Source: an uncultured Gammaproteobacteria bacterium (GTDB lineage Bacteria; Patescibacteriota; Microgenomatia; Levybacterales; GWA1-39-11). Taken from it: a DNA stretch of 64,000 nucleotides. The DNA lies in contig CAZYWG010000001.1 of NCBI GenBank assembly GCA_964651815.1, positions 129,189-193,188 of the forward strand. The letters are read 5' to 3'. Position 1 is the stretch's first letter; every line of letters starts with the position of its first letter. The position numbers and the translations under genes were made by a program. The notes below the pieces were generated by a model. That model was not told where the DNA came from. It saw nothing but the letters and a program-made list of their open reading frames with translations, and ran no database searches. Shown here piece after piece: positions 27,821-64,000 of this stretch.

Positions 27821-29104
27821 ATGAAAATTGGTATTATTGGAGCGGGATTTACTGGACTTTCTGCAGCATTCGCCTTATCAAAAAAGGGACACGACGTTGA
27901 GGTTTTTGAACGTGATGATAAGCCTGGAGGTTTAGCAATTGGATATCAAGAAAAAGAGTGGAAATGGAGCCTTGAAAAACATTACCATCATTGGTTTACA
28001 AATGATAAATTCGTATTGAATCTCGCAAAAGAAATTGGCCACAATGTAATTATTCGGCGCCCAAAAACTTCAAACTTTGTTAATGGCCGGATTTACCAGT
28101 TTGACTCTCCTCGTGACGTTTTGTCATTTCCAGAACTATCTGTATTTAACCGTCTGCGTATGGCTGCAGTAATTGCAACTTTGCGTTACGACCCTTTTTG
28201 GCAGCCGCTTGAGAAATTTAATGCAACCGAATTTTTACCTAAAACGATGGGCGAAGAAGCTTATAGATTAATTTGGGAGCCATTGTTTAAAAATAAATTC
28301 GGACCTTACTCAGATAACATTTCTCTTGCATGGTTTTGGGCAAGAATTGTAAAACGCACACCTTCTCTTGCTTATCCTGAAGGAGGTTTTCTAACTTTTG
28401 CACAGCACCTTCAGAAAGCAATAGAAAAACGAGACGGCAAATTTCAATATAATACAGAAGTTATTGATTTGTCATCAGATAAAAATCCCCACATAAAATT
28501 TTGCAGGGTCGGAACAACTGAAACAAAATTGAAAAGTTATGACAAAGTTATAGTTACACTTCCTTCCTTCCAATTTCTAAAAATCGCACATAATTTACCT
28601 GACGAGTATAAAAATAAATTTGTAAAACTTAAAGGTCTTGGCGCAACCAATCTTATTCTTCGTCTCAAAAAACCATTTTTTCAAGATAATACGTATTGGC
28701 TTAGTATCTGTGATCCAACCTCTCCCATTATGGCAATTGTAGAACATACAAATTTTATGGACAAAAAAAATTATAACAATGAACACCTAGTTTATCTTGG
28801 AAATTATTTACCTGCAGATCACACGAGATTTACTATGGACAAAGTAGAAAAGTTAAAACTTTTTGATTCTTTTTTAAAAAAAATCAATCCCGAGTATAAA
28901 AAGAGTTTAATAGATTATGAGCTATTCAAAGCTCCATTCGCTCAACCAATTATACCGGTTAACTATTCAAAAAATATTCCTCAACATAATACTCCCCTTA
29001 AGAATGTGTATTTAGCAAATATTGAACAGGTTTACCCATGGGACAGGGGGACAAATTATGCTGTTGAACTTGGAGAAAAAATAGCAAATATTGTTTTTAA
29101 TTAA
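27821..29104 (+). CDS. FAD/NAD(P)-binding oxidoreductase of the amine-oxidase/phytoene-desaturase/protoporphyrinogen-oxidase superfamily
   Basis: N-terminal Rossmann fold MKIGIIGAGFTGLSAAFALSKKGHDVEVFERDDKPGG. It is the first gene of a co-directional operon of overlapping genes. Confidence 0.7.
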   Translation: MKIGIIGAGFTGLSAAFALSKKGHDVEVFERDDKPGGLAIGYQEKEWKWSLEKHYHHWFTNDKFVLNLAKEIGHNVIIRRPKTSNFVNGRIYQFDSPRDVLSFPELSVFNRLRMAAVIATLRYDPFWQPLEKFNATEFLPKTMGEEAYRLIWEPLFKNKFGPYSDNISLAWFWARIVKRTPSLAYPEGGFLTFAQHLQKAIEKRDGKFQYNTEVIDLSSDKNPHIKFCRVGTTETKLKSYDKVIVTLPSFQFLKIAHNLPDEYKNKFVKLKGLGATNLILRLKKPFFQDNTYWLSICDPTSPIMAIVEHTNFMDKKNYNNEHLVYLGNYLPADHTRFTMDKVEKLKLFDSFLKKINPEYKKSLIDYELFKAPFAQPIIPVNYSKNIPQHNTPLKNVYLANIEQVYPWDRGTNYAVELGEKIANIVFN

Positions 29105-31320
29105 TGGACTTTCAAAGCATATCTTCTCTTGCCTATTTTGTTTCTTTTCTTCTCCTTATAACTTGCCTTGGAATTCCAATTGTGTTTCTTCTTTTTAAAA
29201 AAAACGGGGATCATGGTTTTGCTTTTTCAAAGCTTTCTGTAATTCTTATTTTATCTTTCACTTCTTGGCTTATAGGATATATGGGAGAGGTATATATTTT
29301 TAAAACAATTTTGGCAGAATTTTTAATAATCGCAATTATTTCCTCGATTGTTTTTTTTAAAAATAAAAAAGACTTAATTAAAACTCTCAAATCTAGCAAA
29401 AAGATATTTATTTTTGAGGAACTTATTTTTTGGATTTTCTTCTTTTCTTTTATCTTAATTCGCGTAGGTAACCCAGACTTATGGCACCCTGTCATGGGTG
29501 GCGAAAAACCGATGGATTTTGCCTTCTTAAATGCAATGGTAAGAACAACTTCTCTTCCACCATTTGACCCATGGTTTGCAGGAAGTACTATCAATTATTA
29601 CTATTTTGGGCAATTTATAGGCGCGACAATTATTAAGCTATTAAATATTCCTTCTGCTATATTCTATAATCTTTTTCTTTCATACCTTTTTGCTCAAGCC
29701 GCGGTGGGCGCAGCATCAATTATTTTTTCATTCACGAAAAATAAGGCGTTTTCATTATTGGGAAGCTTCTTTCTTTTGGTATCAGGCAATTTAGCACAGA
29801 TTCCCGTAATCATTGGCTCATTCAAAACCGCTATTCCTATAAATGGGTGGTATTGGACAGCAACACGAATTATGCCAAATTTTGAAATAAATGAATTTCC
29901 ATTTTTTACATTTCTTTATGCAGATCTCCACTCTCACCTAATTGCGCTTCCCATAGATTTATTTTTAATTGCTCTTCTAACTGAATTTTATCAACTCTTG
30001 AAATCCCAGGAATTAATGCGAGCAACGTTTTTAGTAATTCTCGCATCAATTGTTCTTGGAATATTACGAATGACAAACATATGGGACTACCCTAGCTTTT
30101 TGCTATTTACTTTTTTAGTTATCTTTTTATCAATCTTACATTTTTCAAAAAAAAGCGTTTTTAAACGACTCTTAATAGCGGGTTTCTTATCCGCAATTTC
30201 AGTTGTAGTAAGTAATCTTTCTATTCTACCTTTTATTATTTTTTATAAAACCGGCCCTCTTGGCGCAACAATTTACACAGAGCACCCCACGCGAATATCT
30301 GATTATGTTTTAATTCATGGATTCTTTTTGTTTATATTAATTACTTTCTTTATTGTATTTATTAAATTTAAAAATATTTTTACTCTTTCCAAGATATATA
30401 GGCTCTTTTTGTTTATACCGTTGGCAATTTGCGTTATTTTACTCTCAAAAAGTTTGATCTTTCTAGCATTTATTTCTTTCCTAATTTCATTAACTTTTAT
30501 CACCTTTGTGATAAACAGAAATGACAAACTGGCACCTCCAGTAATTCTATTAATCTTTGCACTTTTCTTGACTTCAATTCCCGATATTATCGACATAAAA
30601 CTCGGTCTCGGAAGAATGAATACCGTTTTTAAATTCTATTTTCAAGGATGGATATTTTTTGCACTTGGATCATCGATTGCCTCATTTTTTATTTTCGAGA
30701 AGATTAAAAAACACTCAACCGTAAAAATCGTCGTAATGGTAATTTTCTTTGTATTATTTGGCGGAACGCTTTTGTATCCCGTGACAGCCACACCTGCAAA
30801 AATTAATGACAGAATGGGGCTAGATAGACGTCCCACTTTAAATGGCGAGCACTACATGAATAATTCCATTTACTACGACAAAGAGGAAAGTATCCCTCTC
30901 CGTTATGACATGTTTGCCATTGATTGGATTAAAAAAAATATAGAAGGAAAACCTGTAATTCTTGAGGCGTCTGTCCCTATTTATCGCTGGGGAAGCCGCA
31001 TCTCAATATATACAGGACTCCCTACTGTACTTGGTTGGGATTGGCACGAAATTGCGCATAGACAATATCTTCCGGCATCAGATATCCAAATCCGCACTGC
31101 TCAAATTCAACAAATATATGAATCAAATGATTTTGAAGCAACAAAAAAACTTTTGGTACTATATAATATTTCATATATTTATTTAGGTCAACTTGAGAAA
31201 GCGTATTACAATACGTCTGGTATTAGAAATATAATTGTTAAACATCCGGCATTTTTTGTGGAAGTTTACAAAAATCCACAAGTTACTATCTATAAGTTTT
31301 TGAATGGAAGATCTTATTAA
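29104..31320 (+). CDS. Chlor_Arch_YYY / DUF2298-like polytopic membrane protein (738 aa), first paralog; probably a GT-C-type transferase
   Basis: About 16 or more TM helices. Motifs EKPMDFAFLNA, DPWFAG, INYYYFG (the YYYxG motif) and GLPTVLGWDWHE. The ATG overlaps the stop of the upstream oxidoreductase. Confidence 0.6.
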   Translation: MDFQSISSLAYFVSFLLLITCLGIPIVFLLFKKNGDHGFAFSKLSVILILSFTSWLIGYMGEVYIFKTILAEFLIIAIISSIVFFKNKKDLIKTLKSSKKIFIFEELIFWIFFFSFILIRVGNPDLWHPVMGGEKPMDFAFLNAMVRTTSLPPFDPWFAGSTINYYYFGQFIGATIIKLLNIPSAIFYNLFLSYLFAQAAVGAASIIFSFTKNKAFSLLGSFFLLVSGNLAQIPVIIGSFKTAIPINGWYWTATRIMPNFEINEFPFFTFLYADLHSHLIALPIDLFLIALLTEFYQLLKSQELMRATFLVILASIVLGILRMTNIWDYPSFLLFTFLVIFLSILHFSKKSVFKRLLIAGFLSAISVVVSNLSILPFIIFYKTGPLGATIYTEHPTRISDYVLIHGFFLFILITFFIVFIKFKNIFTLSKIYRLFLFIPLAICVILLSKSLIFLAFISFLISLTFITFVINRNDKLAPPVILLIFALFLTSIPDIIDIKLGLGRMNTVFKFYFQGWIFFALGSSIASFFIFEKIKKHSTVKIVVMVIFFVLFGGTLLYPVTATPAKINDRMGLDRRPTLNGEHYMNNSIYYDKEESIPLRYDMFAIDWIKKNIEGKPVILEASVPIYRWGSRISIYTGLPTVLGWDWHEIAHRQYLPASDIQIRTAQIQQIYESNDFEATKKLLVLYNISYIYLGQLEKAYYNTSGIRNIIVKHPAFFVEVYKNPQVTIYKFLNGRSY

Positions 31321-35064: not shown

Positions 35065-35615
35065 AGACAAAAATTGGGTTTGATTTTGACAAAATATTTG
35101 TATCATATCCTCCAATTATTCCGGGCTTTTTAATTGAATATTTATATAAGAAGAAAAACCATAATCTTTCTTATAGAATCCCTGGTAAGGTAGAGCAAAA
35201 GATAAGGGTTCTCTCTCATACACCAATTTTTCGTCGTCCTATAAAATCTAACATTGATGCACTTAAAAAAATTTTTGATTCAAAGGAATTTAAAATATAC
35301 TTAATTTCAAGCAGGTTTTCATTTTTAAAAAAAAGGACAGATGACTGGAACCATAAACACAAACTCTCCAGTTTTTTTGAAAACATGTACTTTAACTTTG
35401 ATGATAAACAACCGCATATTTTTAAAAAAACAATCATTAAAAAGGAAGGTATTCAAAAGTTTGTGGATGATGATCTTGATCTTTTGCGATATCTTGCTAA
35501 AGAAAACGAGGACGTACAATTTTATTGGCTGAGTGATAATCATCATTTGACAAAATTACCGGAAAATATCAAAAAAATTAAAAATTTGGAAGAATTTAGA
35601 ATTAAATATTTATGA
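35061..35615 (+). CDS. Hypothetical protein, possibly a HAD-like phosphatase
   Basis: 184-aa protein. FDFDKIF is a motif I-like DxD sequence. VDDDLD is motif IV-like. Translationally coupled to both neighbours. Confidence 0.3.
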   Translation: MKTKIGFDFDKIFVSYPPIIPGFLIEYLYKKKNHNLSYRIPGKVEQKIRVLSHTPIFRRPIKSNIDALKKIFDSKEFKIYLISSRFSFLKKRTDDWNHKHKLSSFFENMYFNFDDKQPHIFKKTIIKKEGIQKFVDDDLDLLRYLAKENEDVQFYWLSDNHHLTKLPENIKKIKNLEEFRIKYL

Positions 35616-37762
35616 TCACACAAGATTTTCTGTATGTTCTCCAGTGGTGGATTCCCTTTTTTATATTGGGAATAGTTTTTTTCCCGTTAACATCTCTTGT
35701 ATTTGAAAACTTTTTGGATAAAGGTTATATTTTTTCAAGAGTAATTGCTATTGGTATAATCTCCTATGTTGTTTTTGTAATTAACGAACTTCACCTCCTA
35801 AAATTTAATACTCCTACGATTCTATTTGTTGTCTTTCTTTTTCTTATTGTTAATATTTTGATTTTTCATAAAACTAAATCCATTAACTTCAAAAAAATAA
35901 ATTACAAAATCATTATTTTTGAAGAGCTTTTATTTTTAGTAGGAATTATTATTTGGTCTTATGTCAGAGCACATGAACCAAGTATTAATGGACTTGAAAA
36001 GTTTATGGACTTTGGATTTCTGAATTCTATTTTAAGATCTGATTATATGCCACCAACTGATATGTGGTTTACACCGCTACCAATAAATTATTACTATTTT
36101 GGTCACCTAAGCACTGCCGTTATTACCAAACTCTCTTTTTTACCATCATTTTTAACATTTAATCTAATGATAGCAACTCTGTTTTCTTTTACATTTAGTC
36201 TTTCTTTCTCTCTTGCTTCAAACTTAATTTCTAAAGCTATTTCTGTTAAAAAAGGAATTTTTGGAGGATTTATTACGGCAATTCTTTTAACTTTTGGAGG
36301 TAACCTTCACATGATTTATGCATTATTTAAACCGTATGATGTAACCAACCCTGTCCCCTTTTGGAAACTTTCATTTTCCCCGCTTACTTTCCCAAATAGC
36401 TATTGGTATCCAAATGCAACGCGTTTTATTCCCTACACTATCCATGAATTCCCAATTTATTCATTTGTTGTATCCGATCTTCACGGGCATGTAATTGACA
36501 TAATGTACGTGCTCTTATCAATTACTTTAATCTACGCCCTTTTTATTAAAAAGGGGATTGATAAGGTGACACTCGTTTTAATATCTTTTTTCCTTGCAAT
36601 AATGTACATGACAAATGCGTGGGATGGTGGAATTTATTTAATGCTAGTGTGCATAATACTATTCATCAAAAATTGGCACTATATAAAAATCCGTAAAGGT
36701 CAAAAAATCTTATCAATTCTTAACCATCTTGAATTATCTAATATTAAAGTTTTTTTAACAAAACTTTTTAAACCTGCTATTAGCACTTTTATTTTATTTG
36801 TTATTTTTTCACTCCCGTTTAACATCTATTTTCAGACAGGGGCGATAGTACATGGTATTGGAGTTGTCTGCGCGCCAAGTTTTCTGACTAATATTGGTCA
36901 CTTGGGCCCGTTCTTATTTGAAGCGTCACATTGCCAAAAATCCACATGGTGGGAACTCTTAACTCTTTACGGATTTTTCTACTTTTTTGTTTTATCGTTT
37001 TTGATTTTTATATCCCGGAGCAAAAAATTGAATTTGCTAACTGAAGACTTCTTTATTTTAGCGTTAATTCTAATTTCAACTCTATTGATAATTATTCCAG
37101 AATTTTTCTATCTTAAAGATATTTATCCTGCTCATTATCGTGCAAATACCATGTTTAAACTTGTTTACCAAGCATTTATGATGCTCTCGATTGTTTCGGT
37201 TTACGTTTTAGTCAGAATTTTGAATAAAACAAAAAATATTTTCTTTTACATCATGAGTGCAATTTTAATCATCCCAATTCTTATCTATCCTTATTTTGCA
37301 ATTAGGTCATATTATGGAGATTTTAAGAACTATACTGGAATTAATGGTTCGCTTTATCTTAAAACACGCTACCCGGATGATTACTCTGCAATAAACTGGA
37401 TAAATACCAACATTCAGGGCCGACCGGTGATGGTAGAAGCACAAGGCGATTCTTACACGGATTACGAAAGGATTTCAGCAAATACAGGCCTTCCAACAAT
37501 TCTTGGCTGGACAGTCCATGAATGGCTTTGGCGTGGGACGTATGATATTCCAGCACCGCGAATTCAAGAAGTCAAAGATGTTTATGAAAATCCGGATGTT
37601 AATAAAACACGACAGATATTAAAAAAATACAATGTGCAGTATGTTTATATAGGAACACTTGAGCATCAAAAATATGTAAATTTAAAAGAGGACAAATTTG
37701 ATAAACTTGGTAAAGTGGTTTTCCAGCAAGGACAAACAACAATCATTAAACTATCTATTTAA
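35612..37762 (+). CDS. Chlor_Arch_YYY / DUF2298-like polytopic membrane protein (716 aa), second paralog
   Basis: Same architecture and motifs as the 29104-31320 gene: EKFMDFGFLNS, DMWFTP, INYYYFG and GLPTILGWTVHEWLW. Confidence 0.6.
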   Translation: MITQDFLYVLQWWIPFFILGIVFFPLTSLVFENFLDKGYIFSRVIAIGIISYVVFVINELHLLKFNTPTILFVVFLFLIVNILIFHKTKSINFKKINYKIIIFEELLFLVGIIIWSYVRAHEPSINGLEKFMDFGFLNSILRSDYMPPTDMWFTPLPINYYYFGHLSTAVITKLSFLPSFLTFNLMIATLFSFTFSLSFSLASNLISKAISVKKGIFGGFITAILLTFGGNLHMIYALFKPYDVTNPVPFWKLSFSPLTFPNSYWYPNATRFIPYTIHEFPIYSFVVSDLHGHVIDIMYVLLSITLIYALFIKKGIDKVTLVLISFFLAIMYMTNAWDGGIYLMLVCIILFIKNWHYIKIRKGQKILSILNHLELSNIKVFLTKLFKPAISTFILFVIFSLPFNIYFQTGAIVHGIGVVCAPSFLTNIGHLGPFLFEASHCQKSTWWELLTLYGFFYFFVLSFLIFISRSKKLNLLTEDFFILALILISTLLIIIPEFFYLKDIYPAHYRANTMFKLVYQAFMMLSIVSVYVLVRILNKTKNIFFYIMSAILIIPILIYPYFAIRSYYGDFKNYTGINGSLYLKTRYPDDYSAINWINTNIQGRPVMVEAQGDSYTDYERISANTGLPTILGWTVHEWLWRGTYDIPAPRIQEVKDVYENPDVNKTRQILKKYNVQYVYIGTLEHQKYVNLKEDKFDKLGKVVFQQGQTTIIKLSI

Positions 37763-53236: not shown

Positions 53237-54184
53237 ATGCAAACTAAAAACGTTTTTGTGACTGGTGGGACCGGATTTATTGGAGCAAACCTTATATACA
53301 GGTTGATTGGAAAAGGATTTACCATACATCTTCTCGTAAGAAAAGAAACAAATTTTTGGAGATTAAAAAAAATTCAAAATAAAATTCACACCCATTTTGT
53401 CGATCCTTTAGAACTGGGTGCTTTATCATCAACATTGAAAAAAATAAATCCAAATGCAATTTTTAATTTAGCGGCATACGGTGGATCATCATCAGAAACA
53501 GATATTCAGGAAACAATTCAAGCGAATATAAATATCACAGCAAATTTGCTGCTCGCTAGTCAAAACATCCCTTATAAAATTTTTGTGAATACCGGGTCGT
53601 CTTCAGAATACGGTTTTAAAAAAAATGCAATGAATGAAAATGATGCGCTTTCACCTAGCAGTTTTTACGCAGCAACAAAAGCTGGCGCAACATATTTATG
53701 TCAAGTTTTTTCAAAACAATATAAAAAACCAATCGTCACACTTCGTCCCTTCTCTGTTTACGGACCTTACGAGTCAAAAAACCGTTTTATCCCTACAATT
53801 GTTCAAAATCTTATCAACAAAAAAGACATAAATGTTACAAAAAGCCCATCACGACGAGATTTTATTTATATTGATGATATAATCGATGCGTATATTAAAA
53901 CTTATCAACTCGGCAAAAAATTAGGCGGTGAAATTTTCAATCTTGGGACAGGAAAAGAATATTCAAATCAAGAAGTGATAGAACAACTTTTTAAAGTATC
54001 AAAGAAAAAAGTTGCGGTAAATCATGGCGCATATGCAGAACGTTCCTGGGACACTCTCCACTGGAAAGCAGATATTTCAAAAGCCAAAAAAGGGCTTGAC
54101 TGGAAACCTAAATATACACTTGCACAAGGTCTAAAAAAAACGTTTAGATGGTTTTCTGAAAATTCAACTCTGTATGAAAATTAA
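53237..54184 (+). CDS. NAD-dependent sugar-nucleotide epimerase/dehydratase (SDR)
   Basis: VFVTGGTGFIGANL (GxxGxxG). YAATKAGA contains the YxxxK catalytic dyad. Confidence 0.85.
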   Translation: MQTKNVFVTGGTGFIGANLIYRLIGKGFTIHLLVRKETNFWRLKKIQNKIHTHFVDPLELGALSSTLKKINPNAIFNLAAYGGSSSETDIQETIQANINITANLLLASQNIPYKIFVNTGSSSEYGFKKNAMNENDALSPSSFYAATKAGATYLCQVFSKQYKKPIVTLRPFSVYGPYESKNRFIPTIVQNLINKKDINVTKSPSRRDFIYIDDIIDAYIKTYQLGKKLGGEIFNLGTGKEYSNQEVIEQLFKVSKKKVAVNHGAYAERSWDTLHWKADISKAKKGLDWKPKYTLAQGLKKTFRWFSENSTLYEN

Positions 54185-54929
54185 CAGAACATCAAAATCA
54201 TTTGAAAAATTTATTAAAAAGCTTTCCACCGAGCAAAAAAAATTAAGAATTAGAATCCTTGAAATTTCTAACGCTGCACAAATTAGCCATATTGGTTCTT
54301 GTTTTTCTTGTGTAGATATAATTGCAGCGATTTATAAAGTGAAAAAACCGGTAGATAAATTTGTATTGAGCAGCGGGCACGCCGGCGTTGCGTTATATTC
54401 GGTCCTTGAAAAAAAAGGGATGATGAAATCTCCCAGTATCGGAAATCTTCACATACACCCTGACAGGAACATCAAAAATGGAATTTACGTCTCAACGGGA
54501 AGCCTAGGACAAGGCTTACCAATTGCCGTTGGGTTTGCACTTGCCAATAGAAATGAGAATGTTTATTGTGTGGTTTCTGATGGGGAGTGTTTTGAGGGAA
54601 GTATTTGGGAGTCAATAAATATTGCATCAAGTCAAAGACTTGGAAATTTAAAAATAGTCGTTAACGCGAATGGTTTTGGGGCTTATGGGAAAACAGATGT
54701 AAACAAACTCGCTCCTAAGTTTATTGCTTTTGGAGCACGTGTTACAACTCTAGACGGACATGATGTCAAAAAAATTTCTAGTGCACTTTCCAAAAAGATA
54801 AAAAATAAACCAGTTGTCATTATTGCAAAAACTACTGTTGAGCAACTTCCTTTTTTACAAGGGCAGGATGCACATTATAAAATAATGATAGCAGAAGAAT
54901 TTAAGCTTGCCCGAGAAATCTTAAAATGA
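54174..54929 (+). CDS. Split transketolase, N-terminal (ThDP/PP-domain) subunit
   Basis: GH...ThDP-binding GDG...N motif (VVSDGECFEGSIWE...VVNANG). Confidence 0.8.
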   Translation: MKINRTSKSFEKFIKKLSTEQKKLRIRILEISNAAQISHIGSCFSCVDIIAAIYKVKKPVDKFVLSSGHAGVALYSVLEKKGMMKSPSIGNLHIHPDRNIKNGIYVSTGSLGQGLPIAVGFALANRNENVYCVVSDGECFEGSIWESINIASSQRLGNLKIVVNANGFGAYGKTDVNKLAPKFIAFGARVTTLDGHDVKKISSALSKKIKNKPVVIIAKTTVEQLPFLQGQDAHYKIMIAEEFKLAREILK

Positions 54930-55450
54930 AAGCCAAATTGCAAAAACTTAATATCAAACATCGTCATCCCACAATGAGGGGATGGTTTTCCTATGAACTT
55001 TATAATCTTATGTTGAAAGATGACAAAATATGGGTAATAGTTGGTGACTTAGGATATAAAATGTTCGACTTTATAAGAGAGGCTTTCCCCGAGCGATTTA
55101 TAAATACAGGGTCCGCGGAACAAGCAATGATAGGAATTGCAATAGGTCTTGCACTTCAAGGAAAGAAGCCTTTTGTTTATTCAATTACGCCATTTCTTCT
55201 CTATCGTCCATTTGAAACGATAAGAAACTATATTAATCAGGAAAAAATCCCAGTCCGTTTAATTGGCGCCGGACGAGATCGTGATTATCTACATGATGGG
55301 TTTTCTCATTGGGCAGAAGAGGATAAAAAAATAATGAAGATTTTTGGAAATATAAATTCTTTATGGCCAAGCAAAAACGAGGATATTCCATCACACGTTA
55401 AAAAAATGGTAAATACTAATAAACCATGGTACATTAACCTTAAGAAATAG
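54926..55450 (+). CDS. Split transketolase, pyrimidine-binding (Pyr) domain subunit; short form with no C-terminal domain
   Basis: FINTGSAEQAMIGIAIGLALQGKKPFVYSITPFL is a Pyr-domain signature. Only 174 aa, against a typical ~300-aa C-subunit. Confidence 0.7.
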   Translation: MKAKLQKLNIKHRHPTMRGWFSYELYNLMLKDDKIWVIVGDLGYKMFDFIREAFPERFINTGSAEQAMIGIAIGLALQGKKPFVYSITPFLLYRPFETIRNYINQEKIPVRLIGAGRDRDYLHDGFSHWAEEDKKIMKIFGNINSLWPSKNEDIPSHVKKMVNTNKPWYINLKK

Positions 55451-60846: not shown

Positions 60847-61842
60847 GTGGAAAACAATCAACTATCCCAAACTTCACAAGTTCCACCTGTTCAACCGGTT
60901 TTCCAAACTAAATCTCCCGGTCAATTAAAGTCTACTTTCCATATTCCTAAATTAATTATGTTTGGGATTATTTTGCTGATTCTTATTTTGATTGTCCCGG
61001 TTAGTATATATGTTTTAAAAGTATTTGAAGCAATTCCTAAAGCAAACTGGAAAACATACACAAATAATATTTATCACTATTCATTTCGATATCCTTCAGG
61101 GGACACCGTTGAAGAAACTGTACCGGATCGTTTTGGTAGCTCGGTAACAATATCAGACAGCGAAGGGATAATTAATGTTGATGTGAATCCTATTAACTTA
61201 CCTGATTTCCATAAAATTTCTGGAGATTCAGTAAATAAAAGATCATTCAACGGGATATCATGGTACATACACACAACTCAAGGTACTGACTGCTCCCATG
61301 GATGTTTAAGTAGTCTTCCTTCAACTGTAACTTATCAAACTGAAAAAGATGGCGATGCCTATACTTTCAGCTATGATTATTATGGAAATAAACCACTGCT
61401 ATATGATGCTATTTTTTCAACCTTCAAATTTACAGACCAAACAAAGACAGCAATAAGTCTGACCCAAGAACTTAATAATTTCCCCATATATCCTGCTGCT
61501 ATATATACTTCAAAATCTATCAATGGATCTTGTCTCCAGCAAACACTAGGTCCAAATGAATGCATTAAGGGATATACGGTATATAAATTCGGATTTCATG
61601 AAAATGAAGAAACAGTAATGAATTGGTATAACGGAAAGGAGTTCCCAACCGGATGGAGCTGTATGGTATTTGGTGCAAAGAATACTCACACTTATAAGAA
61701 TATATCTGAAGAATATTCTCCTTCAGGACATTTTACTCCTTACGTATATTCGTACTTGGATAGTTTATGTTCTAACAATAATTTACGCTATAAATTGAGG
61801 ATATCCTCAGATCAAACTATCTTTGTCGGAATACCTGATTGA
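60847..61842 (+). CDS. Secreted/membrane-anchored hypothetical protein
   Basis: N-terminal TM helix/signal anchor (LIMFGIILLILILIVPVSIYVL), then a Cys-containing globular domain. Confidence 0.4.
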   Translation: MENNQLSQTSQVPPVQPVFQTKSPGQLKSTFHIPKLIMFGIILLILILIVPVSIYVLKVFEAIPKANWKTYTNNIYHYSFRYPSGDTVEETVPDRFGSSVTISDSEGIINVDVNPINLPDFHKISGDSVNKRSFNGISWYIHTTQGTDCSHGCLSSLPSTVTYQTEKDGDAYTFSYDYYGNKPLLYDAIFSTFKFTDQTKTAISLTQELNNFPIYPAAIYTSKSINGSCLQQTLGPNECIKGYTVYKFGFHENEETVMNWYNGKEFPTGWSCMVFGAKNTHTYKNISEEYSPSGHFTPYVYSYLDSLCSNNNLRYKLRISSDQTIFVGIPD

Positions 61843-61913
61843 CCCTTCATTTCGTAAACGGGGGGAGGACCAACTTCTTTGGCCTTGCCAAACTAAGCCT
61901 TGGCGAAGTTGTG

Positions 61914-62000
61914 CGGAGAGGGCGAGATTCGAACTCGCGGTGACGTTGCCGCCACAAAGGTTTTCAAGACCTTCGCACTAGACCACTATGCGACCTCTCC
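61914..62000 (-). tRNA. tRNA-Ser (anticodon TGA)
   Basis: Folded manually. Acceptor GGAGAGG/CCTCTCC. 3-bp D stem. Anticodon stem AAGGT/ACCTT with loop CTTGAAA. 18-nt variable arm. T arm GCGAG-TTCGAAT-CTCGC. Discriminator G. CCA is not encoded. Confidence 0.85.
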
Positions 62001-62041: not shown

Positions 62042-62042
62042 G

Positions 62043-62128
62043 CGGAGGAGACAGGATTCGAACCTGCGAGAGCCTTACGGCTCAGGGATTTAGCAAACCC
62101 CCTCAGTGGGCCACTGTGACACTCCTCC
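62043..62128 (-). tRNA. tRNA-Ser (anticodon GCT)
   Basis: Acceptor GGAGGAG/CTCCTCC. 3-bp D stem TCA/TGA. Anticodon stem GGGGT/ATCCC with loop TTGCTAA. 17-nt variable arm. T arm GCAGG-TTCGAAT-CCTGT. Confidence 0.8.
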
Positions 62129-62230: not shown

Positions 62231-62656
62231 TTGTTAAGGCTTTATGAGCCTATTTTGGTTGCCGAAAAAGCTATCCTATGCTATGATTTAAGCATGACAA
62301 ACGCAGTTGCTGAAACTGAAATGAGTTCTGTGAATCCGCCCGAAAGTAAGCCAGTTACTCTTTTACCAGAAGTTACTGGGAGTGGCGTAAAAGCTATTCA
62401 ACCGGATAAGCATATGAATGAAATTATAGATGCACATCCGGAAGAATCTGTAATGCCCGCCGCCCAATCTGTCCCAACACCAACAGCTTTAAGCGAAACG
62501 CTTATGGTTCCCATAACTCAAACTACTGAAGTGTTATCTCCGGATAGAAAAAGTGACGCTACACAAACTTCAAGATACGCAAAATTTGTAAATATGTTAA
62601 ATAAAATAAGATCTGGAATTAGAGCTGGAAAAGGAGGACAAAATGGGATTAGATAA
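62231..62656 (+). CDS. Hypothetical soluble protein (141 aa)
   Basis: ORF immediately upstream of, and overlapping by 14 nt, the ATPase gene. No motifs recognised. Confidence 0.3.
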   Translation: MLRLYEPILVAEKAILCYDLSMTNAVAETEMSSVNPPESKPVTLLPEVTGSGVKAIQPDKHMNEIIDAHPEESVMPAAQSVPTPTALSETLMVPITQTTEVLSPDRKSDATQTSRYAKFVNMLNKIRSGIRAGKGGQNGIR

Positions 62657-64000
62657 TTTCACTCAGGTATTTATAAATGTACTTTTCGCGTTTTTACTCG
62701 CTTTTGTCCTTGCGTCAATTGTCATTGGGTGTTTAGCGGGGATTGTTCTTGCAGTGGGTTTTTGGAATAAAAGTAAAAAAAGGCACGAACGCGCACTTGA
62801 TACAACTCTTCTTGAAGTATCTCTTCCACGCGAAAATGAAATTAAGATTGACGCGGCAGAACAACTTTTCTCAAGCGTTATTTCTATCAAAGGTACAAAA
62901 GGAATATTTTCTTTTCTTAAAAACGCTGATAGCATTTCGTTTGAAATAGTCGCGCGTCCTCAAGACATTAGATTTTATGTTGGAGTACCAAATAAACTTC
63001 GTGACATGGTTGAAAAACAAATCCACGGAAGTTATCCTGACGCGCAAATTCTTCAAGTTGAGGACTACAATTTGTTTGAAACCCCGGGACACGTTGCGTA
63101 TTCGTCGCTCAAACTTAAAAAATCAAATTATTTACCCATAAAAACCTATAAGGATTTGCCTATTGATCCTCTATCGTCAATTACTAGCACGATAGCTAAA
63201 ATGACAGAGGGTGAAGGCGCTTCAATTCAGATTCTAGTGACTCCTTGTGGTGATTCCTGGAAAAAGGCAGGACGCGAATATATTACAACTACCAAAAAAC
63301 GCGAGGCAAATCCAGAGACTGCTAAGTATTCCGTTGACCAAAAAGAACTTGAATCAATTGAACAAAAAATAACAAAGCCGGGTTTTGCAGTATTTGTAAG
63401 ACTTCTGGTTGTCTCCTCAACCAAAGAATCATCGGAAGCGCATCTTACAAATATTAAAGGTTCTTTTTCACAATTTGAGTCTTCATACAACGCGTTTGAG
63501 GAAGAAAAAAACAGGTTTTTTAAAGGAATGGCAATTGTTGATTTTATTTACCGCCAACTACCCCTTATGCCAAAAGTTTTGGGAATTCTAAATACAGAAG
63601 AGCTTGCAACAATTTTTCATTTTCCAAACAAAACGGTTGAGACGCCGGGGATTCATTTTCTTGGGGCTCGCGTCGCACCTGCTCCTGCAAACATTCCAAC
63701 CAGCGGGCTTTATCTTGGGAAAAGTATTTACCGTGGACAGATTCGGGAAGTATACATGAACGATGATGACCGGAGACGCCACATGTATATAATAGGTAAG
63801 ACAGGCGTGGGAAAATCAGAATTTTTGAAGGATATGATTCTTCAAGACATTCGCAACGGCAAAGGGCTCTGCTTCATTGATCCTCATGATACAATAGACA
63901 TGATCTTGCCGCTTATCCCACCGGAACGTGCTGAAGATGTTATCCTGTTTGACCCTTCAGATACGGAACGCCCAATGGGTGTAAATTTCTTAGACGCCCA
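62643..64000 (+). CDS. Membrane-anchored P-loop NTPase (VirB4/VirD4/HerA/FtsK-like, AAA_10/DUF87-type), 3' partial
   Basis: Re-translated by hand: no stop codon from the ATG at 62643 to the window end (452 or more codons). A strong AGGAGG RBS lies 5 nt upstream. N-terminal TM helix VLFAFLLAFVLASIVIGCLAGIVLAV. Walker A HMYIIGKTGVGKSEF, followed by GLCFIDPHDT and VILFDPSD. Confidence 0.6.
   Translation, partial: MGLDNFTQVFINVLFAFLLAFVLASIVIGCLAGIVLAVGFWNKSKKRHERALDTTLLEVSLPRENEIKIDAAEQLFSSVISIKGTKGIFSFLKNADSISFEIVARPQDIRFYVGVPNKLRDMVEKQIHGSYPDAQILQVEDYNLFETPGHVAYSSLKLKKSNYLPIKTYKDLPIDPLSSITSTIAKMTEGEGASIQILVTPCGDSWKKAGREYITTTKKREANPETAKYSVDQKELESIEQKITKPGFAVFVRLLVVSSTKESSEAHLTNIKGSFSQFESSYNAFEEEKNRFFKGMAIVDFIYRQLPLMPKVLGILNTEELATIFHFPNKTVETPGIHFLGARVAPAPANIPTSGLYLGKSIYRGQIREVYMNDDDRRRHMYIIGKTGVGKSEFLKDMILQDIRNGKGLCFIDPHDTIDMILPLIPPERAEDVILFDPSDTERPMGVNFLDA

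Follow-up and report, generated by a model that had tools for sequence, protein, structure and literature searches.

What is encoded by the reading frame that runs off the end of a 64,000-nucleotide (nt) stretch (hereafter the window) of contig CAZYWG010000001.1, from an uncultured bacterium placed by GTDB in the Levybacterales of the Patescibacteriota? The first-pass annotation of this DNA had claimed here a partial open reading frame (ORF), missing from the ORF list, for a membrane-anchored P-loop ATPase resembling VirB4, VirD4 or HerA. That description holds, and sequence profiles place the protein in the VirD4/TrwB branch. In the reading preferred here, which is given a probability of roughly 0.55, the window ends in a two-gene operon whose second gene is that of a membrane-anchored ATPase; within the HerA-FtsK superfamily, this ATPase falls in the type IV coupling protein (T4CP) branch, and it would serve a type IV secretion system (T4SS) encoded elsewhere. 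The identity of the family, a DUF8128-type coupling-protein-like ATPase, is secure, and the functional link of the ATPase to a T4SS is moderately supported.

Translation from ATG 62643 to the window end gives 452 sense codons and zero stops, as claimed. The other five frames over 62643-64000 contain 16-43 stops, and the chance of 452 open codons at the local base composition (A 0.34, T 0.32) is ~3e-15. The ORF list leaves out frames that run off the source, and hence this frame was not listed. The frame is a gene and not a chance opening because the fragment is 77-79% identical, across 96-100% of its length, to the full-length database proteins P0001 and P0002. Judged from its sequence, the window ATPase is the 5' 57% of a predicted protein of about 790 residues. 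The alignment of the fragment to the family shows no frameshift, and all residues invariant in the family are retained as far as the fragment reaches. In length class, motifs and upstream partner the window gene is like the other DUF8128 proteins of Patescibacteria, from which it differs in a shorter loop: it lacks ~9-12 residues that most relatives have after residue ~139 (window 63060-63070, residues ~139-142). The corresponding site is a loop with a predicted local distance difference test score (pLDDT) below 50 in an orthologue model, and the deletion is probably harmless. An exact-match scan of metagenome contigs with the window end, for the downstream DNA, found no match; Walker B and the rest of the RecA-like core, beyond that end, are known from orthologues.

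The motifs that had been read by eye are also in place. AGGAGG precedes the ATG by 5 nt, and the Walker A box is followed by the strings GLCFIDPHDT and VILFDPSD. The single N-terminal transmembrane (TM) helix is borne out as well: residues 8-41 (QVFINVLFAFLLAFVLASIVIGCLAGIVLAVGFW) form one unbroken hydrophobic segment with a maximum Kyte-Doolittle 19-mer of 2.9, and the AlphaFold model has one long helix at residues 3-52. The 7 residues before the segment contain no K/R and the 15 residues after it contain 5. Under the positive-inside rule, these flanking charges predict an N-out/C-in anchor, with the remainder of the protein in the cytoplasm.

A search of 5.8 billion proteins returned more than 5,300 relatives. 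The best 120 of these are 56-79% identical to the window protein and nearly all 776-791 residues long, and their named sources are Levybacteria, Microgenomates, Beckwithbacteria and 'Patescibacteria group'. PF26449 (DUF8128) is annotated in all 120, and the DUF8128 call for the window protein is made via these relatives. The precomputed architecture of the relatives combines DUF8128 with TrwB_AAD_bind and TraG-D_C, at times with T4SS-DNA_transf or DUF87. NCBI names them 'type IV secretion system DNA-binding domain-containing', 'TraM recognition domain-containing' or 'DUF87 domain-containing' protein, and UniRef 'DUF8128 domain-containing protein'. The mean column identity of the family is 73-74%. 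In the orthologues, Walker B (LYVDEFQNF) and VANQ, which lie 3' of the end of the fragment, are nearly invariant.

Because the window end cuts the ATPase domain, the fragment alone gives only weak profile matches, in the P-loop area, to DUF87, FtsK_SpoIIIE, TrwB_AAD_bind, TraD, TrbC and CedB in Pfam and NCBIfam. Its score against DUF87 is 23.2 bits, equal to the cut-off, with weak matches to FtsK_SpoIIIE and HerA models too; against TrwB_AAD_bind the cut domain reaches 15.4 bits (cut-off 20.5). Full-length orthologues score 26-34 bits against TrwB_AAD_bind (Pfam cut-off 20.5), ~26 bits against TraG-D_C (cut-off 22) and up to 29.4 bits against T4SS-DNA_transf (cut-off 20.1). Their leading NCBIfam matches are SXT_TraD (5e-15) and VirD4-like CD1115 (1.8e-12, residues 383-701), with CedB/CedD, HerA and VirB4_plasma (5e-4) well behind. 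Of the profiles suggested in the first-pass annotation, T4SS-DNA_transf thus matches the full-length orthologues, together with TrwB_AAD_bind and TraG-D_C; AAA_10 and VirB4 (PF03135) give no match at E up to 1, either with the fragment or with full-length orthologues. VirB4_plasma is matched at 3e-4 to 5e-4 by the fragment and the orthologues, at the P-loop only. Whether the query was the fragment, an orthologue or the family profile, the PDB sequences found were TrwB and DotL only, weakly, and never VirB4/TrwK. On these profiles the ATPase is assigned to the T4CP (VirD4/TrwB/TraD) branch, not to VirB4, HerA, ABC or KAP. The window gene adds one member to a large, already annotated, functionally uncharacterised family, and this DUF8128 subfamily is near-universal in Patescibacteria. 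An ABC or KAP NTPase, which had been named as the outcome that would overturn the assignment, is excluded through the full-length orthologues: neither these nor the fragment matched ABC_tran or KAP_NTPase at E up to 0.1-1.

The ~350-residue 'unknown domain' between anchor and ATPase corresponds to DUF8128, for which a confident model predicts a fold like that of the VirB4 N-terminal domain, a match visible in structure only. In an AlphaFold2 model built from a 46-sequence alignment, with the truncated ATPase part left unmodelled, residues 50-340 of the window protein form a tandem alpha/beta domain with pLDDT ~90. The top 14 Foldseek matches of the N-terminal fragment in the PDB are TrwK/VirB4 chains of the R388 T4SS (E 6e-8 to 3.5e-5, probability 1.0, 375-465 aligned columns). 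TrwB, HerA and FtsK are absent among the matches listed (E up to ~1e-2), and therefore the likeness is to the VirB4 N-terminal domain and not to the RecA fold. The full-length model of the orthologue P0040 (pLDDT 78.8) has TrwK as its best match, collinear over ~870 columns (E 1e-16). The next matches are Cag-beta, TrwB and HerA, all on the ATPase half; target-normalised TM-scores of this half are 0.5-0.6 against TrwB and Cag-beta, with TrwB at ~0.6 across ~430 columns and 16-18% identity. Helices at residues ~465-594 of the orthologue model form an all-alpha insertion between the Walker A strands and Walker B. By sequence, hhalign comparison of the N-terminal domain with three VirB4-like neighbour proteins gave a probability of 0.1-0.2.

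The domain composition is stable across the family. The window protein's N-terminal domain alone retrieves 2,384 cluster representatives (50% clustering), and the domain is N-terminal in all of them. Because the same C-terminal ATPase is present in 48 of 48 full-length DUF8128 representatives, and because a 31%-identical branch consists of Paceibacteria, Parcubacteria and Nealsonbacteria, the architecture of TM segment, DUF8128 and T4CP-like ATPase is fixed in at least two major Patescibacteria classes. With the T4CPs VirD4, TrwB and TraD it shares an N-terminal membrane anchor and a RecA-like domain in which helices are inserted between Walker A and Walker B; it differs from them in the ~300-residue, predicted cytoplasmic alpha/beta DUF8128 domain between anchor and ATPase. 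None of the five architecture classes in a 2020 review of T4CPs has a DUF8128-like domain. A literature search found DUF8128 mentioned in no paper.

The first gene of the proposed operon is the small upstream ORF (62231-62656) that had been suggested as a possible partner. The ORF exists, overlaps the start of the ATPase gene and is a conserved neighbour in the family loci. Because of the family alignment, ATG 62294 is its probable true start. Its stop codon (TAA, 62654-62656) gives a 14-nt overlap with the ATPase start, and the ribosome-binding site of the ATPase gene sits inside the small ORF. This overlap of stop and start argues for coupled translation of the two genes. In 80 species-level genomes the two genes are kept together. 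Nearly all of 81 loci from species-level genomes have an ORF on the same strand that touches or overlaps the start of the ATPase gene, and in 69 of the 81 it belongs to one family. This Microgenomatia family has a Q/S/P-rich low-complexity N-terminal part, the motifs …pEv..aGVe… and …LPmT…, and a terminal helix …dS..WLa.l..k. The window ORF matches the family hidden Markov model (HMM) in the motif region with 18.4 bits (E 6e-7, in a database of six sequences), and has no match in Pfam, NCBIfam, PADLOC or PHROG. Most of its product is disordered and acidic, and the C-terminal helix is basic.

Median pairwise identity in the small family is 27%, versus ~70% for the adjacent ATPases. The nonsynonymous rate (dN) of the small gene is 0.15-0.56 in all computable pairs, far below the synonymous rate (dS; >1.1 or saturated), and in the only pair with dS not near saturation the ratio of the two is 0.096 for the small gene versus 0.016 for the ATPase gene. 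From these alignments, the small gene is judged to be real, fast-evolving and under purifying selection, and its product is a probable partner or adaptor of the ATPase. Small genes directly beside a coupling ATPase, whose products presumably bind it, are found in TraG-TraJ pairs, in pIP501 TraJ/TraI and in CagZ-Cag-beta (8dol, which is among the fold matches). The Patescibacteria partners are unlike the TraG-TraJ and CagZ types: they are charged, soluble proteins, not multi-TM, mostly disordered and with a helical part at the C-terminus, and Microgenomatia and Paceibacteria have different sequence families of them. At 62259-62287 on the plus strand lies a promoter-like site (TTGCCG and TATGAT with a 17-nt spacer, plus a TG extension), which ends 6 nt before ATG 62294. 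This ATG has no Shine-Dalgarno sequence in front; the mRNA of the small gene might be leaderless. The features of the window end are collected in Table 1.

Table 1. Coordinates of features at the window end (aa, amino acid residues)
Feature	Position	Strand	Description and basis
ATPase gene, 5' part	62643..64000	+	Open frame of 452 codons, ~57% of gene; full-length relatives 776-791 aa
N-terminal hydrophobic segment	62664..62765	+	aa 8-41; hydropathy and flanking charges; feature shared by relatives
DUF8128 domain	62790..63662	+	aa ~50-340; predicted cytoplasmic, alpha/beta; AlphaFold2, Foldseek, PF26449 in relatives
Walker A / P-loop GKTGVGKS	63795..63818	+	aa 385-392; RecA-like ATPase domain begins; invariant in family
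Shine-Dalgarno AGGAGG	62632..62637	+	Read from sequence; 5 nt before ATG, within 3' end of small ORF
Small upstream gene	62294..62656	+	120 aa from ATG 62294; ORF open from TTG 62231; ORF list and family alignment
Two tRNA-Ser genes (anticodons TGA, GCT)	61913-62000, 62042-62128	minus	Directly upstream of small ORF

More distant relatives of the ATPase occur on plasmids and in phages. In PHROGs, phrog_5156 is matched at 4e-94, and tblastn finds relatives in phages and plasmids at 21-30% identity with most of the protein covered. The phage relatives comprise 39 records, 35 of them from Bacillus phages, including G gp156, SPO1 gp27.4, SPO1-like phages and 0305phi8-36. The plasmid relatives are on 316 plasmids (Streptomyces 91, Bacillus 55, Staphylococcus 33 and Clostridium 19, with further ones in haloarchaea and Sulfolobus). 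Separate HMMs derived from the Patescibacteria family detect both domains in a B. subtilis plasmid protein (N-terminal domain 3.7e-23, ATPase 2.1e-35) and in phage G gp156 (1.8e-23 and 2.9e-38), and hhalign supports the two-domain kinship of the plasmid and phage proteins with 98% probability. The N-terminal-domain HMM gives no match to the neighbouring VirB4-like ATPases. SPO1 gp27.4, G gp156 and the 886-residue B. subtilis plasmid 'DUF87 domain-containing protein' thus have the same two domains as the window family, with E 1e-13 to 1e-23 for the N-terminal domain and 1e-22 to 1e-38 for the ATPase by HMM and hhalign. These Bacillus versions differ in their 21-25% identity, in seemingly having no N-terminal hydrophobic anchor and in being plasmid- or phage-borne, the plasmid ones linked to relaxase/T4SS genes. 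The label 'MsbA' (lipid A export ATP-binding/permease) on several phage relatives is a database misannotation.

After the relative, a 24.7-kb B. subtilis plasmid encodes a replication-relaxation protein and then a Tcp-like Gram-positive T4SS. The gene order on an Embleya plasmid is PrgI, XF1762, ATPase, the relative, replication-relaxation protein and NlpC/P60. In phage G, the VirB-like ATPase gp155 directly precedes gp156 (L091 4860-7337); around SPO1 gp27.4 (L088 4941-7661), T4SS genes were not found. On Bacillus and actinomycete plasmids, distant two-domain relatives occupy the coupling-protein position, by a relaxase-type gene and a VirB4-like ATPase. From these plasmid contexts, the subfamily therefore serves monoderm conjugation systems in the coupling-protein position, in agreement with the published origin of the Patescibacteria T4SS from the monoderm MPF-FATA type (PMC12102498).

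In Levybacteria, the surroundings of the gene are those of ordinary chromosome, in the window as in related loci. Recurrent outer neighbours in the 81 loci are NrdR, RNR, Cob_adeno_trans, a 384-residue unknown protein, a Xer-type recombinase and a DivIC-like gene. The window region is collinear with contig L001, its closest relative, and in neither of the two are these outer neighbours kept beside the ATPase; the small ORF alone stays linked. Their arrangement elsewhere is therefore lineage synteny and not a functional unit, and the Xer-type recombinase, DivIC, RNR and the 384-residue protein were rejected as functional partners. The tRNA-Ser pair upstream of the small ORF occupies the site that the block of the 384-residue protein, Cob_adeno_trans and RNR has in Levybacteria loci, and therefore marks a synteny breakpoint. 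The GC content of 0.37-0.41, versus 0.30-0.37 in the neighbouring DNA, outlines no sharp island. Genes of the VirB6/VirB8 type, relaxases and competence genes, which the first-pass annotation had proposed to look for nearby, went undetected both in the window and in related Levybacteria loci. The proposed link of the ATPase to DNA transfer is therefore unproven here.

The Paceibacteria neighbourhood differs from that of Levybacteria. A small upstream gene of a different family (121-142 residues) is present in at least 5 of 6 loci, and a downstream pair encoding proteins of ~490-630 and ~70 residues in 3-4 of the 6. The downstream genes are at L084 10457-12374, L093 10462-12583, L094 11121-12820 and L085 10556-12052. 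The larger protein is soluble and the ~70-residue protein is conserved (MtN…LP.lDeeeR..L..tLk.i.lLD.Eek), and Pfam gives no match for either. In Paceibacteria, the downstream pair, the ATPase gene and the small upstream gene may form a four-gene module. Linkage to T4SS genes is partial and was seen in two Paceibacteria loci: in one the DUF8128 gene is 6-10 kb from pilin-like/PrgI genes, and in the other it adjoins dnaA/dnaN, and a pilin-like gene lies on the far side of the origin. In the first of these, on a closed Nealsonbacteria chromosome, ComM, an Mg-chelatase-like competence protein, is encoded ~400 nt downstream of the DUF8128 gene (L086 12837-14357), and a T4SS-like cluster (KsgA, a pilin-like 410-residue gene, an 825-residue unknown gene and PrgI; L086 18035-22454) begins ~6 kb downstream.

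The published record bears on this assignment. Quinonero-Coronel et al. (2025) surveyed 3,035 Patescibacteria genomes and found 5,713 VirD4-type T4CP homologues in 2,918 of them, with relaxases nearly absent (PMC12102498). According to the Levybacteria entries of their Table S3, these genomes have a VirB2-TrsD-VirB4 cluster and a single 't4cp1' away from virB4 (PMC12102498). Because these entries list a single T4CP, it is presumably the DUF8128 protein. The operation of such a system may be envisaged as follows. The ATPase would insert N-out/C-in and build a hexameric ring at the membrane. Its VirB4-like N-terminal domain would dock on membrane partners, most plausibly a chromosomal MPF-FATA-like T4SS (VirB4/TrsD/VirB2) encoded elsewhere, and ATP hydrolysis would pass the substrate to the T4SS channel. 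Because relaxases are absent, a canonical conjugative relaxosome would be an unlikely substrate, and a protein, or DNA without a canonical relaxase, a likelier one. The small disordered upstream protein would be made in step with the ATPase and might act as an adaptor or regulator, for which CagZ-Cag-beta and TraG-TraJ are precedents.

Several points weigh against a coupling ATPase that serves a T4SS. The ATPase domain itself is mostly outside the window. Full-length orthologues widely miss every curated NCBIfam T4CP equivalog cut-off. The window protein has one hydrophobic segment, not the two or more TM helices that the T4CP review gives for the N-terminal domain of VirD4-type proteins, and the small protein, unlike TraJ-type partners, is not a membrane protein. 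T4SS components, relaxases and integrases were undetected in the window (30 ORFs, 6 without Pfam match) and within 10 kb in Levybacteria loci (L001, L002 and the recurrent neighbours of the 81 loci), a further difference from known T4CPs. In the survey, only 148 of the 5,713 Patescibacteria T4CPs are near virB4, T4CP homologues are found in 2,918 genomes versus 2,417 for VirB4, and the T4CP homologue of S. epibionticum is non-essential though the T4SS is essential; the authors leave exaptation open (PMC12102498). The essential T4SS cluster of Wang et al. (2023) has no recognizable coupling protein or relaxase (PMC10633639). The survey results also speak for an exapted translocase that works independently of a T4SS, alone or with the small partner, as a hexameric pump for DNA/polymer uptake or export or in chromosome handling at division. 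The very strong conservation of the ATPase in column identity and, in one computable pair, in dN/dS fits such a role, as do the stable housekeeping neighbourhood in Levybacteria, ComM in one Nealsonbacteria genome and the SPO1-type phage relatives without T4SS genes around them. However, the outer Levybacteria neighbours are not kept in the window or in L001, which retain only the link to the small ORF, and two-domain relatives are embedded in conjugative T4SS clusters. The modelled VirB4-like N-terminal domain would also suggest docking on membrane parts of a T4SS. A role as FtsK replacement is given low weight and is probably not needed, since FtsK is mentioned in Saccharibacteria papers. 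A T4SS-independent translocase is on balance doubtful, though it is the most serious competitor of the coupling ATPase.

A divergent VirB4-type assembly ATPase, that is, a second VirB4 paralogue and not a coupling protein, would account for the structural searches, in which TrwK/VirB4 comes first with the N-terminal fragment and with the full-length model and aligns collinearly over both domains. The two-domain layout with an N-terminal membrane segment also recalls VirB3-VirB4 fusions. The window family indeed shares with VirB4/TrwK of R388 (7o42, 7o43, 8rtd) an N-terminal alpha/beta domain and a C-terminal RecA-like ATPase. However, it has no detectable sequence similarity to VirB4/TrwK in the N-terminal domain, as the hhalign comparison illustrates; its ATPase is nearer the T4CPs by sequence, VirB4 profiles match it at the P-loop alone, and the family profile misses VirB4 in the PDB. 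Its gene is not beside VirB3, TrsD or VirB6, and Levybacteria genomes, according to the Table S3 entries, already hold a separate bona fide VirB4. A separate VirB4-like ATPase accompanies the relative on plasmids and in phage G, and on plasmids the relative adjoins a relaxase gene. A second VirB4 is thus improbable. Even less probable is a gene outside the chromosomal core, either cargo or remnant of a mobile element (a prophage or integrative element) or part of a defence system such as MADS. Relatives on plasmids and in Bacillus phages, the strong phrog_5156 match and the two tRNA-Ser genes just upstream, tRNA genes being typical integration sites, would fit this, as would the match of PADLOC mad8 (MADS) to the ATPase core (E 1e-16 for P0040, residues 372-699; 4e-7 for the window fragment). 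Against it, the pair of small ORF and ATPase recurs in 80 species-level genomes with conserved chromosomal synteny, GC content is not sharply different, IMG/VR holds no relative of the Patescibacteria clade, and the scan of the window showed no integrase, relaxase, phage or further mad genes. No methyltransferase/defence cluster or other mad gene stands beside the ATPase in the window or in related loci either. The mad8 match is limited to the generic ATPase core and suggests that mad8 itself may be a coupling-protein-like ATPase; a literature search on mad8 gave nothing relevant. Least probable of all is a pseudogene disrupted shortly beyond the window end. The 3' 43% of the gene is outside the visible DNA; however, the 452 visible codons have no stop or frameshift, the invariant residues are kept, the ribosome-binding site and the coupled upstream gene are intact, and the family is under strong purifying selection.

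In S. epibionticum, the sole Patescibacterium tested genetically, the T4SS is essential for epibiotic growth; the T4SS of this group has no recognizable relaxase, and the coupling-type ATPase is encoded elsewhere. A bolder and unlikely proposal would be that DUF8128 proteins are coupling-type ATPases that keep the ancestral two-domain plan of VirB4, as a living VirB4-VirD4 intermediate, and that in Patescibacteria this ancient conjugation part was split from its relaxase and channel genes, paired with small lineage-specific disordered partners and kept in nearly every genome. It would there be the motor of a relaxase-independent transport that matters for the host-dependent lifestyle, for example import or export of nucleic acid or protein at host contact. 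For the window itself, the annotation gains a real gene missed by the ORF track, plus a small partner gene, and the family assignment is corrected to the coupling-protein type, away from VirB4, HerA, ABC and KAP. For specialists, the VirB4-like DUF8128 fold, the near-constant, fast-evolving partner gene and the two-domain relatives on Gram-positive plasmids and in Bacillus phages may help to frame experiments; these three side results alone do not establish a new kind of system.

The Pfam scan of the window ORFs identifies housekeeping and envelope genes, among them PurL, LepA, GroEL, MurJ, UvrD, LytR, FemAB, Ni-SOD, an Mrr-like nuclease and Peptidase_C39_2. A 331-residue ORF with an N-terminal hydrophobic segment and no Pfam match (60847-61842, plus strand) is the last protein gene before the tRNAs. 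Upstream of it, a ~13-kb block (~47-61 kb) of glycosyltransferase, methyltransferase, epimerase, carbamoyltransferase and GT87 genes is absent from the otherwise collinear L001. The block surrounds a split transketolase-like pair on the plus strand, in which a thiamine pyrophosphate-binding half (54174-54929) and a pyrimidine-binding half (54926-55450) overlap by 4 nt. Further upstream, two paralogous DUF2298 membrane proteins of 738 and 716 residues (29104-31320 and 35612-37762, plus strand) are encoded less than 6 kb apart, with a PMT_2-type glycosyltransferase gene between them.

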